From: Fibrobacterales bacterium
GTDB taxonomy: Bacteria; Fibrobacterota; Fibrobacteria; Fibrobacterales; JAOPTW01
Length of the DNA: 64,000 bases
Direction: 5' to 3'
NCBI GenBank assembly: GCA_051532055.1
Contig: JAOPTX010000037.1
Span: 1-64,000 of the forward strand
Shown: positions 6,415 to 13,937 of the stretch, one piece after another
Layout: each line of letters starts with the position of its first letter
Numbering within the stretch: the stretch's first letter is position 1
The notes under the pieces: model-generated
The model's input: the letters and a program-made list of their open reading frames with translations, nothing else
Database searches by the model: none
Told to the model about the DNA's origin: nothing
Translations under genes and position numbers: made by a program

Positions 6415-6443
6415 CAATTATGATACATAAAGCGAGAGCCCGA

Positions 6444-7649
6444 ATGGCTGTAGACTACTTCAAAATGTCCATGGATATGCATAAGCAATGCCAAGGAAAA
6501 ATCGGTATAGAATCAAAATTTTGTGTAAAAAACAAAGAAGATCTTTGTGTTGCTTACACCCCTGGAGTTGCAGAACCATGTCTTGCAATTGCAAAAGATC
6601 CAGAACTTTCTAAAACATTAACGATTCGTGGAAATGCTATTGCAGTTGTTACTGATGGTACGGCAGTACTTGGTCTTGGTAATATCGGTCCAGAAGCAGC
6701 GATGCCTGTAATGGAAGGCAAAGCACTCCTCTTTAAACAATATGCCAATATTGACGCATGGCCACTCTGCCTCGACACTACAGACCCTAAAGAGATTATA
6801 AAAACAATTCGCTATTTAGCGCCAAGTTTTGGCGGTATCAACCTCGAAGATATTGCCGCTCCCCATTGTTTTGAAATTGAAAATGAGCTCCAAGACTTAG
6901 GCATCCCTGTCTTTCATGATGACCAATTTGGTACTGCAATTGTCTGTTTAGCAGCCATAATCAATGCAACTAAAGTTGTTGGTAAAAAAGTAGAAGACCT
7001 CAATGTTGTTATTTCTGGCCCCGGCGCTGCCGGCTCAGCTATTGCGCGATTAATTGCTATGCAAGGATTTGCAGCTTCGCCCGATAGGCCACCGGTACAT
7101 AATATCATCCTTTGTGATGAACACGGTGCCTTAGTAAAAGGCCGTGCACACCTCACTCCTGAATATGAAAAGCTACTAGAATTTACCAATAAAGAGAATC
7201 GTGGAGGCAAACTAAGTGATGTGATTGAGGGTGCTGATGTATTTATTGGTGTATCTCGTCCTGGAGTTCTCAAGAGAGAGGATGTAGCCAAAATGAGTAA
7301 GAATGCAATAGTTCTTGCTATGGCAAACCCAAAACCAGAAATCATGCCCGATGAAGCAAAAGCGGGTGGTGCGGCGGTAATTGGTACTGGACGAAGCGAC
7401 TTCCCCAATCAAGTAAACAACGTTCTCGTTTTTCCAGGTATCTTTAGAGGTGCCCTTGATGCAAAAGCCAAACAAATTACCCCTGAAATGAAAATTGCTG
7501 CAGCGTATGCCCTCGCAGCCCTCATTAAGGAGCCTACCGCTGATAAAATTATCCCAGACCCCTTTGATACAGGCGTTGCGGCCGCTGTTGCAGAAGCGGT
7601 AAAACTCACTGCAGAGAATCAACTCAAAAATGAAAAAGAATTTGTATAA
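6444..7649 (+). CDS. NAD(P)-dependent malic enzyme (short form)
   Basis: AYTPGVAEPC, TDGTAVLGLGNIG, PVMEGKALLFK, GGINLEDI, PVFHDDQ, TGRSDFPNQVNNVLVFPGIFRG; start 6444 or 6420. Confidence 0.93.
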   Translation: MAVDYFKMSMDMHKQCQGKIGIESKFCVKNKEDLCVAYTPGVAEPCLAIAKDPELSKTLTIRGNAIAVVTDGTAVLGLGNIGPEAAMPVMEGKALLFKQYANIDAWPLCLDTTDPKEIIKTIRYLAPSFGGINLEDIAAPHCFEIENELQDLGIPVFHDDQFGTAIVCLAAIINATKVVGKKVEDLNVVISGPGAAGSAIARLIAMQGFAASPDRPPVHNIILCDEHGALVKGRAHLTPEYEKLLEFTNKENRGGKLSDVIEGADVFIGVSRPGVLKREDVAKMSKNAIVLAMANPKPEIMPDEAKAGGAAVIGTGRSDFPNQVNNVLVFPGIFRGALDAKAKQITPEMKIAAAYALAALIKEPTADKIIPDPFDTGVAAAVAEAVKLTAENQLKNEKEFV

Positions 7650-7673
7650 TTAGTATAAACCCAAAACCACCGA

Positions 7674-10223
7674 GTGAATATGAGCAACTTTTTTGATACA
7701 TATAACGAGCATGTAGCAGCCCGAGCCAAAGAAGGCATACCTCCCCTTCCTTTAACTATTGAACAAGCTTCTGACGTTATCACCCTTTTAAAAAAACCTT
7801 CTGCCGGTACCGAGCAAGAGCTATTTGACCTCATTGCGAACCGCGTAAATCCAGGTGTTGATCCGGCGGCAAAGCTCAAAGCAGAATTTCTTCTCGACCT
7901 CGCTCAAGAAACGGTAACTACACCAGTTGTTTCTGCTGAGAAAGCTATCGAACTCTTATCAACAATGGTTGGTGGATATAATATTGATGCACTTGTAACG
8001 ATAGTAGAAAGCGGCTCTTCCTTGGCATCTCAAGCAGCTGATGCCCTCAAAAAAATTGTACTTTCAGTCAACCGCTACGAAGATATTGAAGCTCTTGCAA
8101 AAAGTGGGAACACACTCGCAGAAGGTGTTATTGAATCATGGGCTTCAGCTGAGTGGTTTACAACACAGCCTGAAGTACCTGAAGCAATTAAAACAGTCCT
8201 ATATAAAGTAGATGGCGAGATAAATACCGATGATTTCTCACCTGCAGCATATGCATATACCCGTTCCGATATTCCCTTGCATGCAAATGTCATGGGTGGT
8301 ACGGTCTTTCCTAATGGACCGAAAGAAATTGTTGACCTCAGAACAGAAAATGATCTTCCTGTAAGTTTTGTGGGAGATGTCGTAGGAACTGGTTCTTCAC
8401 GAAAATCTGCATGTAACTCACTTCTTTGGCATATTGGTAATGAAATCCCTTTTATCCCCAATAAAAAACGTGGCGGCGTTATAATCGGTGGAATTATTGC
8501 TCCAATCTTTTTTAACACAGCAGAAGACTCAGGTTCTCTGCCTCTTCAAGCTGATGTAACAAAACTTAAAACCGGTATGGTTGTCACAGTATACCCTCAC
8601 AAAGGTGAAATTCATGATGAATCTGGTGCTGTAATAACAACATTTGAAAATAAACCTGCAACAATATTAGATGAATATCGTGCCGGTGGGCGCGTCCCAC
8701 TTATTATTGGAAAACTTCTCACCGGAAAAGCTCGTGAGTATTTAAAACTTTCTGTCATTGAAGAGAGTGGAATTTTTGTTAATCCCGAAAATACACAACC
8801 TTCGGAAGGGCAAGGCTATACTCTTGCCCAAAAAATGGTTGGAAAAGCGTGTGGCGTTGAGGGTATCCTCCCAGGAACTGCGTGCCTCCCAAAAATGACT
8901 ACTGTTGGGTCTCAAGATACAACAGGCCCAATGACCGCAAACGAAATGACAGAACTTGCCTGCCTCGAGTTCAATGCAGATCTCGTTATGCAATCATTCT
9001 GTCACACAGCCGCTTATCCAAAACCTTCTGATGTCATAACCCATTCAACTCTTCCCGATTTTATTAGCAGTCGCAAAGGTGTTGCTCTTCGCCCTGGCGA
9101 TGGTGTTATTCACTCTTGGCTTAACCGCCTGCTTGTTCCAGATACCGTAGGTACTGGTGGCGACTCTCATACTCGATTTCCAATGGGCATATCATTCCCT
9201 GCAGGGTCAGGACTTGTTGCATTTGGCGCCGCACTCGGTGTTATGCCTTTGGATATGCCCGAATCAATTCTTGTCCGTTTTAGTGGAAGCCTTCAACCTG
9301 GACTCACTCTTCGTGATGCTGTAAATATGATTCCATGGAAAGCAATACAAGAAGGTAAACTTACGGTTGCAAAAGAGGGTAAGAAAAATATCTTCTCGGG
9401 TAAAATCATTGAAATCGAAGGACTTCCTGACCTTAAAGTTGAACAAGCATTTGAGCTCACTGACGCAACAGCAGAACGTTCGGCTGCCGGTTCTACAATT
9501 AAACTTAACCGTGGCCCTGTCGAAGAGTATCTCAAGTCAAATGTCGCACTTATGGAAAAGATGATTGTTGATGGCTATAGTCATGCAGATACACTCCAGA
9601 AGCGTATTGATGATGTAAAGCACTGGCTTGCAACTGAAGAGCTCATGAGTGCTGACGCCAATGCTCAGTATGCCGACATTATTGAAATCAACCTAGACGA
9701 AATGACTGAGCCTATTCTAGCATGCCCTAATGATCCTGATGACGTAAAACTCATTTCTGAAGTGGCAGGAAACACTGTTGATGATGTTTTTATTGGATCA
9801 TGTATGACCAATATTGGCCTATTTAGAGCTGCCGGTAAAATCCTAGAAGGTAATGGATTTGCTGAATCACAACTCTGGGTATGTCCACCTACTAAGATGG
9901 ATGAAAAACAACTTATTGATGAAGGGTACTACTCAACATTCTCTGGAGCTGGTGCACGACTCGAGCTCCCAGGGTGCTCACTTTGTATGGGTAACCAAGC
10001 ACGCGTTAAAGACGGCCATACAGTATTCTCTACCTCTACCCGTAATTTTAACAACCGGTTAGGTAAAGATGCTAATGTCTATCTTGGGTCATCAGAGCTC
10101 GCAGCCGTAGTTGCACTCAAAGGCAAGATACCCACTAAAGAAGAATATCTTGCGCTTTACAATGAAACGATTGTTGGCAATGAAGATACTCTCTATCGCT
10201 ATTTGAATTTTCACTTAGCATAA
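7674..10223 (+). CDS. acnB: Aconitate hydratase B
   Basis: HEAT-like N-terminus, NTDDFSP, GTGSSRKSA, GSQDTTGPM, QSFCHT, GGDSHTRFP, LACPNDPDD, IGSCMTN, PGCSLCMGNQ, STRNF. Confidence 0.97.
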   Translation: MNMSNFFDTYNEHVAARAKEGIPPLPLTIEQASDVITLLKKPSAGTEQELFDLIANRVNPGVDPAAKLKAEFLLDLAQETVTTPVVSAEKAIELLSTMVGGYNIDALVTIVESGSSLASQAADALKKIVLSVNRYEDIEALAKSGNTLAEGVIESWASAEWFTTQPEVPEAIKTVLYKVDGEINTDDFSPAAYAYTRSDIPLHANVMGGTVFPNGPKEIVDLRTENDLPVSFVGDVVGTGSSRKSACNSLLWHIGNEIPFIPNKKRGGVIIGGIIAPIFFNTAEDSGSLPLQADVTKLKTGMVVTVYPHKGEIHDESGAVITTFENKPATILDEYRAGGRVPLIIGKLLTGKAREYLKLSVIEESGIFVNPENTQPSEGQGYTLAQKMVGKACGVEGILPGTACLPKMTTVGSQDTTGPMTANEMTELACLEFNADLVMQSFCHTAAYPKPSDVITHSTLPDFISSRKGVALRPGDGVIHSWLNRLLVPDTVGTGGDSHTRFPMGISFPAGSGLVAFGAALGVMPLDMPESILVRFSGSLQPGLTLRDAVNMIPWKAIQEGKLTVAKEGKKNIFSGKIIEIEGLPDLKVEQAFELTDATAERSAAGSTIKLNRGPVEEYLKSNVALMEKMIVDGYSHADTLQKRIDDVKHWLATEELMSADANAQYADIIEINLDEMTEPILACPNDPDDVKLISEVAGNTVDDVFIGSCMTNIGLFRAAGKILEGNGFAESQLWVCPPTKMDEKQLIDEGYYSTFSGAGARLELPGCSLCMGNQARVKDGHTVFSTSTRNFNNRLGKDANVYLGSSELAAVVALKGKIPTKEEYLALYNETIVGNEDTLYRYLNFHLA

Positions 10224-11241: not shown

Positions 11242-11278
11242 AAAAAAGGTCGAAGAGTGTAAGCTCTTCGACCTTTTT
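11242..11278 (-). terminator. Intrinsic terminator of the icd-citrate synthase fusion gene
   Basis: AAAAAAGGTCGAAGAG-TGTAAG-CTCTTCGACCTTTTT. Confidence 0.85.
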
Positions 11279-11297: not shown

Positions 11298-13937
11298 CTA
11301 TTTATCTCTACGTGGTCCCGCATAGATGTATTTAGGTCGCATAATTGGAACACCCTTACCACCACGAGCAACAGTGCGTTCATAAAGAATTTGCGCTGCA
11401 ATACCTACACATCGTGAAAGCCCAAAGAGTACCGTATAGTAGTTTTCATCTTCAAGACCACAGGCCTTGAGAAGTGATCCAGATACTGCATCAACATTAG
11501 GGTATGGATTAGAAACCTTTGGATTACGTGAAAGTACTTTAACCGCAACTTTTCTAAGAGCTTTAGCCATTTTAAAGTGTGGAGTATCAAGCCCTAGATC
11601 CTCGCCTAGCCCATATTGTACAGTCGCACGAGGATCTTCACCACGAAGTACTGCATGACCAAATCCAAATATTTTTCCACCATTATCAAAATGATTTTGA
11701 ATAAACGCTTCAAGAGCATCTTCATCTTCAGGATTAGGAACCTTCTCTAATACTAAATCGATAAAGGCTAAACACTCTTGATTTGCACGACCATGAAGTG
11801 GTCCATCTAAAGCACACATTGCTGCAATTAATGAGCCATACACATGTTCATGTCCTGATGCTACTGCTTTACCTACGAGGGTTGAAAGGTTGCCTCCCCC
11901 ATGGTCATAGTGAAGAATATTAAATATTTTCATTAACTGTTTTAAATTCTCATGTGCTCCTGGAGCTCCCATCATATGGGTAAAGTTTTCCATATACCCG
12001 AGTTCTGGTTTTGATGGAATTGCATCTCCCCATCCCTCACGGAATCGAAAAATTGCTGCAACAACTTCTGGAATTTGAGCAACAAAATTCATACAGTCAT
12101 TACGGTAATTACTGGTATTAAACATAGCCATGGAATTAATACCAGTGACGAGCCACTGCATTGGATGCGCATCTTTCGGCAAACGAGCGAGGCGTTCAAG
12201 TATTAATGGATGTAGCTTAGAGCGATCTCTCAACTCTTCTTTGAAATCAAGAAGTTGCTGTTTATCTGGAAGTTCCAAGTTAAAAAGTAGGTAGATAACT
12301 TCTTCTGGTGCTTTATACGCTAATTCAGCTATTGGATAGCCAGCATAGTGTACACCATCAATTGGATCAACAAAACTTGTAACACAATGTCCAACAGGAA
12401 CACTGCGGAGTCCCGAATCAAGATTATTTTCTTTAATTTTATAGAGAGTGTTATTTTGAAATTTAACTACTTCATCATCTTTACCATCAAATGGTGCGAG
12501 AGATCTTCCTTCAGCATTTTTCAAGTAATCCTGAAGATTACTTTGATAGAGGCGTTCACCACGCCCCGACTCCATTTGATTTGCTTCAATGTTGGCTCTA
12601 TTTTCAAACTGATCAACAACACTTATTTTATCAGTTTTTTTTTGAACCTTTTTTTTTTGAAATTTTCTTTGAGCTGCAAGCTCGGCAATAGTATCAACCA
12701 TCACCTTACCAAATCCAGAACAAGAGAGCCCTTCAGCGCCAGTCATCTGATCAGCAAGATCTTTAGTAACTTTCTTTACACGGATACATTCAGTCAAGGC
12801 ATCACACACCAAGTCTGCGGCGTCTTTCCAATTAAAAAACTCCAGCATCATCACTGCACTTAAAAGTACCGATGATGGATTTGCAAGATCCATTCCAGCA
12901 ATTGCAGGAGCCGTACCATGAGTCGCCTCAAAGATTACTGTTTTATCACCAAAGTTAGCTCCTGGAGCAAGTCCGAGTCCACCAACTTGTGCTGCACATG
13001 CATCAGAAAGGTAGTCACCATTCAAATTGAGTGTGGCAATCACGTCATACTGAGCAGGATCAAGTAATAAGTTTTGAAACATAGCATCTGCAATAACATC
13101 ATTAATAAGGATTTTACCTTTCGGTTGTTTCCCTTTGTATTTAGTCTGTACTTCTTCCCAAGTAACAACTTTATTGCCAAACTCTTTTTTCGCAACTTCA
13201 TAACCCCAGTTTCTAAATCCACCTTCGGTGAATTTCATGATGTTACCTTTATGAACCAAAGTTACTGTTGGGCGATTATTATCGATTGCATATTGAATAG
13301 CGCGTTTAACTAAGCGTTTTGAGCCTAGAGCTGAAACTGGTTTAATACCAATTGCACTTGCTGGACGCACTTTTTTACCAGTGGTCTCAGCAATAAATTT
13401 AATAAGTTCTTTTGCATCTTTCGAACCAGCCTTATACTCAATTCCTGCGTATACATCTTCTGTATTCTCGCGAAAAATTACGACATCAAGTTCACCCGGA
13501 TGCTTAACAGGCGCTGACACACCTGGAAACCAGCGTACTGGACGTACACATGCATACAAATCGAGAGTTTGTCTCAGTGCAACATTAATTGAGCGAATGC
13601 CCCCACCAATAGGTGTAGTGAGCGGTCCTTTAATCCCTACTTTAAACTCTTTGAGTGCTTTAAGAGTTTCTGCGGGTAGCCATTCATTTTCGCCATATAC
13701 TCCAAGAGCTTTTTCGCCAGCAAAAATCTCCATCCATTCAATTTTCTTTTTACCATTGTATGCAGCTTCGACTGATGCGTCTAAGATTCTTTTAGCCACA
13801 CTCCAAATGTCAGGACCGATACCATCACCTTCGATAAAAGGAACAATAGGGTGGTCCGTTTTTTTAGGAACACCCTTTGCTGTAAACTCGATCTTTTTCC
13901 CTGATGTTGGTACTGTAATGTGCTTGTATTTTGCCAT
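11298..13937 (-). CDS. icd: Fused isocitrate dehydrogenase (N-terminal ~420 aa) and citrate synthase (C-terminal ~385 aa)
   Basis: Icd motifs: [69 protein letters not shown]. Citrate synthase motifs: [49 protein letters not shown]. One uninterrupted ORF. Confidence 0.93.

Follow-up and report, generated by a model that had tools for sequence, protein, structure and literature searches.

A candidate transcriptional slippage site at the junction of a fused isocitrate dehydrogenase and citrate synthase in the Fibrobacterales

Known slippage systems and the fusion gene

In Thermus thermophilus dnaX, transcription slips at a run of nine A residues, tau being read in frame and gamma arising after the slip (PMC1088944 and PMC5009743, which, like the other papers cited here, we draw on in excerpt). 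Two-ORF dnaX genes with 10 As have been ascribed to transcriptional realignment (PMC3711429), and in Escherichia coli dnaX and copA a complete N-terminal unit is freed from a longer protein at the motif A_AAA_AAG (PMC5009743, PMC3711429). In yeast, the pre-duplication IDP2 gene undergoes a +1 frameshift at a T6 run (PMC4526572). According to the passages cited of PMC1088944, few chromosomal genes are known to make a short product by slippage, and truncating cases are not easily recognised in sequence. We found no account of a fusion of isocitrate dehydrogenase (Icd) with citrate synthase (CS), or of slippage in a bacterial icd, in the open-access literature, a scope outside which most subscription journals lie.

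The gene described here encodes such a fusion and lies in a window of 64,000 nucleotides (the whole stretch of DNA that was analysed). The source genome (G000) comprises 5.17 Mb with 39.6% GC and is compared below with a sister genome (G001); the read runs holding the fusion gene are labelled marine metagenome. The parts of the gene, in window coordinates, are as follows.

11298..13937, minus strand: Icd–citrate synthase fusion ORF, 879 aa, 96.8 kDa
12687..13937, minus strand: homodimer-type isocitrate dehydrogenase domain, residues 1-417
12456..12686, minus strand: linker of ~77 aa with a Lys-rich beginning, seen in no proteins other than four long-linker fusions
11298..12455, minus strand: citrate (Si)-synthase domain, NF007128 subfamily, residues ~495-879
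11243..11278, minus strand: 15-pair terminator-like hairpin with a T tail, 3' of the fusion gene, from a consensus scan only

The protein contains PF00180 at residues 32-410 and PF00285 at residues 509-869, and matches both TIGR00183 (Icd) and NF007128 (citrate synthase) above cut-off. Solved Icd structures align as far as fusion residue 414-419. The Icd positions that we take, from E. coli Icd numbering, to contact substrate and metal are all intact (S116, N118, R122, R132, R156, Y163, K230, N232, D284, D308 and D312). The fusion carries A345 and I346 where the NADP-type homologue P0004 has Lys and Tyr, the pair named as NADP determinants in PMC5397045, and for this reason the fused Icd may, as judged from its sequence, not duplicate the separate monomeric isocitrate dehydrogenase of the same genome. 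The AlphaFold model of the fusion, built with 5 sequences, was unusable (mean pLDDT 36.9). An origin of the linker from Icd-CBS proteins was considered and is weak (an HH probability of 32% when the Icd end is part of the query and of 0.2% when it is left off); an Atlas search with the linker returned a single lead (0.75). An internal start for a free synthase was also rejected, the only in-frame candidates being M455 and TTG472, both without an SD element. Genes for malic enzyme and aconitase B occupy window positions 6420-10223 on the plus strand, at most 1.1 kb from the 3' end of the fusion gene and on the opposite strand from it, making up a small TCA cluster.

The coding (minus) strand at the junction reads TTT CAA AAA AAA AAG GTT CAA AAA AAA ACT GAT AAA ATA AGT. 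Its two A runs occupy codons 427-430 and 432-435 of the fusion ORF, 10-17 codons past the Icd domain, and are followed by stops in both alternative frames.

12649..12658, minus strand: A10 run (CAA AAA AAA AAG), putative main slip site, within which lie both A_AAA_AAA and A_AAA_AAG; kept in G001
12635..12643, minus strand: A9 run (CAA AAA AAA ACT), candidate second slip site; kept in G001
12628..12633, minus strand: -1-frame TGA TAA, read once one A is added; in G001 the TGA is kept and the TAA lost
12623..12625, minus strand: +1-frame TAA, read once one A is lost or two are added; also present in G001
12594..12648, minus strand: AU-rich hairpin directly 3' of the A10, predicted at -14.8 kcal/mol, z -3.35 in G000

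On conceptual translation, one A added at the A10 gives 435 aa with the tail KGSKKN, while one A lost or two added give 437/438 aa with the tail RFKKKLIK; slips at the A9 are predicted to give 434-438 aa. A slip at either run would hence yield an ancestral-type Icd extended by 17-21 residues (434-438 aa, ~47 kDa). The earlier note had reported the sequence, the coordinates and the alternative-frame peptides, all of which proved correct when the minus strand was re-read. Its claim that a slip either way leaves an intact Icd with a short tail also agrees with the predicted products, in which the Icd residues checked above are retained.

We propose that the A10, helped by the A9, would act as a transcriptional slippage site of the Thermus dnaX kind. 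RNA polymerase would slip so that some transcripts gain or lose an A, ribosomes on the slipped transcripts would stop 1-8 codons later, and the short product would be a complete and likely active Icd of 434-438 aa, made alongside the full 879-aa fusion. Fused and free Icd subunits would then come from one gene in a set ratio, bringing back in part the free Icd of an ancestral icd–gltA operon, and the run would likely be kept by selection for this second product. That slippage at the A10 is selected for its free-Icd product is the reading we prefer, and we rate its chances somewhat below even; the weights given to this and the four other readings discussed below are judgements, not computed values.

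The junction resembles Thermus dnaX in having at least nine A in the coding strand, a full-length product in frame, stops near in both other frames, avoidance of such runs by the host and a short product that is the N-terminal part of the protein, by sequence a complete Icd unit. It differs from Thermus dnaX in being a fused pair of TCA enzymes with two runs, and in that slippage here is predicted from sequence. The A10 equals in length the run of the two-ORF 10-A dnaX genes (PMC3711429), a type that the dnaX of the source genome fits; a slip in those genes leads to a longer product, whereas at the junction it would lead to a shorter one. With E. coli dnaX and copA the locus shares A_AAA_AAG and the release of a complete N-terminal unit, but it has neither an upstream SD-like stimulator nor a conserved 3' stem-loop. 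As in yeast IDP2, the C-terminus of an isocitrate dehydrogenase would be changed via a homopolymer slip, although the yeast case is eukaryotic and the slip there adds a peroxisomal signal instead of removing a fused enzyme.

Rarity, conservation and origin of the junction runs

The host genome strongly avoids long A runs in its ORFs. It holds 11 A/T runs of ten, 76 of nine and none longer. In 3,227 crudely called ORFs, each of at least 150 aa, 29 sense-strand runs of at least nine A were observed against ~216 expected when synonymous codons are shuffled within genes; for runs of at least ten A the figures are 3 and ~80. Where the protein sequence permits a run of at least ten A, one is present at 3/327 sites, and where it permits at least nine, at 28/669. 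Eighteen pairs of such run-permissive sites lie at most 10 codons apart; both runs are realised at the Icd–CS junction only, and the other 17 pairs have no run of at least nine A. Such avoidance is taken in PMC1088944, in the part cited, to indicate that slippage occurs at A9 runs in a species. Because long A runs are avoided, chance runs in a Lys-rich linker are a poor account of the junction in this genome. The caveat of the earlier note, that Lys-rich linkers in an AT-rich genome give A runs and nearby out-of-frame stops by chance, therefore fails for the runs and holds for the stops: both off-frame stops are found within 6 and 9 codons at ~22% of 17,494 random in-gene positions, and we dropped them as evidence of slippage. 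The motif A_AAA_AAG was dropped as well, there being 425 in-frame copies in the genome.

Long-linker fusions were found in 2/296 genomes of the phylum (a third match is weak, with four stops) and as the proteins P0001 (92%) and P0002 (85%). The sister gene, the one orthologue read as DNA, is 88.6% identical in nucleotides, with 258 synonymous and 25 non-synonymous codon differences; it keeps the A10, the A9 and one stop per frame, though V431, D436, K437 and I438 change. For the G001 genome, 66 runs were examined, 48 of them alignable to G000 and 24 in ORFs on the sense strand. Eight of these 24 are kept at a length of at least nine, namely the two junction runs, the dnaX run, a run in an efflux adaptor and 4/19 other in-ORF A9 runs of G001. 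Against a background of 166 genes and 62,999 codons, neutral drift keeps each junction run with a probability of 0.61 and both with ~0.37. Codons 425-447 show 0 synonymous differences where 3.9 are expected (P ~0.03), a stretch picked afterwards, three other stretches of the gene being more extreme. As far as protein sequence alone can tell, P0001 (QKKN, TKKS) and P0002 (EKKS, EKKN) each permit an A10 at one of two sites, and the second site of P0001 permits at most A8; among isolated KK sites, 0.3% are A10-permissive. The comparison suggests selection on the junction runs. In run X1 there is a third population (depth 30, aligned to window 12380-12776), whose Icd end resembles that of P0002 and whose linker has diverged. 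Searching representatives with a profile returned a single match, to an unrelated repeat, and also missed known homologues, which makes this a weak search.

The fusion likely derives from an icd–gltA operon, since icd and the synthase gene are separate neighbours in relatives. The 23 loci with the closest free synthases were drawn from 36 genomes that matched in a search of 296. In 20/23 a separate icd gene sits immediately before the synthase gene; in 19/20 of these its reading frame ends at the position corresponding to fusion residue 417, and no A run longer than 6 occurs at any of the 20 junctions. The operons of the same class share the gene order and are 48-66% (Icd) and 57-66% (synthase) identical to the fusion, which differs from them in being one gene with A runs at its junction, where the operons have at most A6. 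Given that the relatives' Icd is separate and ends at 417, a slip at the junction runs would regenerate the ancestral free Icd. That the Lys run is a relic of an old Icd C-terminus or of an A-rich spacer found no support in the same data, as the relatives' Icd ends at 417 and their spacers have no run above 6. Several Icds from the 20 icd–gltA genomes align over 450 columns, not 418, which points to an insertion of ~30 residues.

Judged from its gene content, the source genome seems to lack both a free synthase and a free Icd of this family. It does hold a second Icd–CS fusion, whose halves lie on two contigs (G000:C65:1-1361, minus strand, and G000:C12:69732-70849, minus strand) and which has a linker of ~15 residues with no A run. 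The two halves are likely one gene: 22 identical bases are shared where the contigs end, and P0003 represents the short-linker type as an unbroken protein. Its synthase is 99% identical in G001. Its Icd in G000 carries N118A, N232T, D308G and D312N (numbering of the window gene) and is likely, on these substitutions, catalytically dead; P0003 keeps both aspartates. The window gene would thus be the sole source of active dimeric Icd, which would give a reason for Icd to be released in larger amounts than synthase. A full-length monomeric isocitrate dehydrogenase (PF03971) is encoded at G000:C42:42092-44293, so that the genome has three IDH-type genes.

dnaX and the other A10 runs as internal comparison

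The three in-ORF A10 runs of the source genome lie in the Icd–CS gene, in dnaX (G000:C17:65273-65282) and in a gene for a CusB-like efflux adaptor. In dnaX the templated frame stops two codons past the A10, giving 388 aa, and one added A opens a frame of 565 aa; the sister genome has the same pattern. The tail opened by the added A matches the tails of 28 other loci (E 5e-102 in the sister genome and 4.5e-15 to 1.4e-3 in the other 27). The tau frame of dnaX thus needs a one-base slip at the A10, and from this we infer that slippage at an A10 is frequent enough to be of use to this organism, as it may also be at the equally long junction run.

The set of dnaX loci comprises that of G000 and those of 29/30 relatives, one partial gene giving no locus. 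The run lies at codon ~370-390 in 30/30 loci (27 A10, 2 A11 and 1 A9), with tau in frame in 23/30 and out of frame in 7/30, the latter including G000 and G001 and one gene cut by a contig end. The A9-A11 run would accordingly appear, by sequence, to be a slippage site common to the whole order. Across the order it sits at the gamma/tau boundary with a frame that flips, and annotation of G000 and G001 would call a 388-aa gene. As the run is held at 10, whereas a heptamer suffices for a ribosomal shift, slippage by RNA polymerase seems favoured. An SD-like tetramer (loose motif set) stands 3-4 bases before the run in 21/30 dnaX loci and none stands before the Icd–CS A10, so dnaX may have help that is absent at the junction and the transfer from one to the other is imperfect; the downstream fold has z < -2 in 9/29 dnaX loci.

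The third A10 (G000:C30:21434-21443) lies in a linker right after three Cys/His-rich repeats of the efflux adaptor, and one added A there would give a predicted N-terminal piece of 158 aa. It is kept in the sister genome and missing in 3/3 distant homologues examined, which means that an A10 can persist between these two genomes without deep conservation. Two A10 runs outside called ORFs, G000:C44:46581 and G000:C80:2854, are kept in the sister genome as well; the latter directly precedes ATG AAA AAA and is possibly part of an A-rich initiation region.

Competing readings and what the junction may mean

Slippage at the junction might be tolerated instead of selected: the runs would slip and some free Icd would be made with no selection for it, avoidance of runs of at least nine A being relaxed because the truncated product works and the second fusion supplies citrate synthase. 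We rate this a little lower than the preferred reading. With free codon choice (CAA 0.66, AAA 0.75) each run has a ~0.37 chance of arising and a 0.61 chance of surviving to G001, and the A10 of the CusB-like adaptor likewise sits in a linker without deep conservation. The separate monomeric enzyme means that free IDH activity exists anyway, which tells against selected slippage, and the second fusion also lowers the cost of a slip, so that tolerance stays a strong rival. Many slippery runs have no evident role in the part of PMC1088944 cited, where truncating cases are called hard to judge from sequence; general support for tolerance also comes from the excerpted preprint 10.1101/2025.10.02.679949, in which numerous domain-truncating shift sites are predicted for Gammaproteobacteria, none with a demonstrated function. 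Tolerance does not sit well with the 17 other paired Lys-rich sites, many of them in linkers or tails, where not a single run of at least nine A has arisen. Further, TCA enzymes are usually strongly expressed. Tolerance is expected chiefly in weakly expressed genes (PMC1088944, in the passages cited).

We consider it unlikely that this is an ordinary Lys-rich linker with negligible slippage, in which only the fusion protein matters. In its favour, two DNA contigs (depth 518 and 273; run X1) and one RNA contig (depth 24.8), from one sample, cross both runs without a gap. Since assembled contigs drop minor variants, gap-free contigs show only that the templated length is the main form; the RNA contig may include DNA from the library, and minority slippage is invisible in contigs. 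A word-based search, weak on low-complexity linkers, scored 0/64 candidates as short or split Icd–CS forms among proteins below 483 aa. In E. coli cell-free extracts, ribosome sliding is weak at A9-A10 and strong at A11, and A9 and A10 gave little truncated product (PMC4363877, in part). Two facts speak against negligible slippage: A-run counts fall sharply at 9, implying a cost to such runs in this genome, and dnaX needs a slip at an equally long A10. For short runs, the RNA polymerase of E. coli is reported to slip less on A than on T (PMC6260861, excerpt), which calls for caution with tests in that host.

A programmed -1 ribosomal frameshift at A_AAA_AAG, of the E. coli dnaX/copA type, with the 3' hairpin as stimulator, would give the 435-aa form only, and we think it quite improbable. 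The in-frame heptamer is kept in the sister genome, and in G000 it is followed by the hairpin (z -3.35) and by a -1 stop 6 codons on. The hairpin was nonetheless dropped as a conserved stimulator, its counterpart in the sister genome being weak (-7.6, z -0.57). Read by eye, the 20 bases before the A10 contain no SD-like element in G000 or in G001, though SD elements are in use in this genome (found before 39% of ATG ORFs, compared with 4% in a control window), and the heptamer, with 425 in-frame copies, is common. Compared with the E. coli dnaX type, the junction thus has the in-frame motif, but not the upstream SD-like element or the conserved stem-loop. Robust poly(A) ribosome sliding needs at least 11 A (PMC4363877, in part), and the longest run in G000 is 10. 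Phase variation, in which slipped-strand mispairing turns citrate synthase off in a subpopulation, is very improbable: A9-A10 runs are mutable in replication and A11 occurs in two relatives' dnaX loci (which could be variants or assembly errors), but both X1 populations have A10 and A9 with no indel contig, gap-free contigs speak against a large switched-off subpopulation, the genes or proteins of G000, G001, P0001 and P0002 are all full-length, no run in G000 exceeds 10, and this is not a surface gene.

The earlier note had proposed recoding or phase variation as the switch between free Icd and the fusion, with free Icd subunits that could cap fusion oligomers. The slippage part of this idea gains from the avoidance of runs of at least nine A, the slip needed at the dnaX A10 and the ancestral icd stop just upstream; the phase variation and the E. 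coli-type -1 shift are not supported, the former as no length variant was seen in two populations, one sister genome and two further protein orthologues, the latter for want of an upstream SD-like element and because the sister genome does not keep the 3' hairpin. Selected transcriptional slippage at the A10 remains the reading that we prefer, and by analogy the junction likely works like the slippage site of Thermus dnaX. What would be new is the setting of a probable site of this kind in a fused TCA enzyme, and the dnaX A10 of the same genome serves as a built-in control for slippage at the Icd–CS site. More tentatively, we suggest that the lineage fused icd and gltA and then recruited dnaX-style polymerase slippage in the new linker, so that free Icd returned in a fixed proportion; the free enzyme, the fusion and a second fusion paralogue whose Icd has lost two metal-binding aspartates may jointly determine the stoichiometry of a hard-wired citrate-to-2-oxoglutarate assembly. 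If the preferred reading is true, it would place programmed recoding within the core TCA cycle, in an enzyme where the recoding would partly undo a gene fusion.
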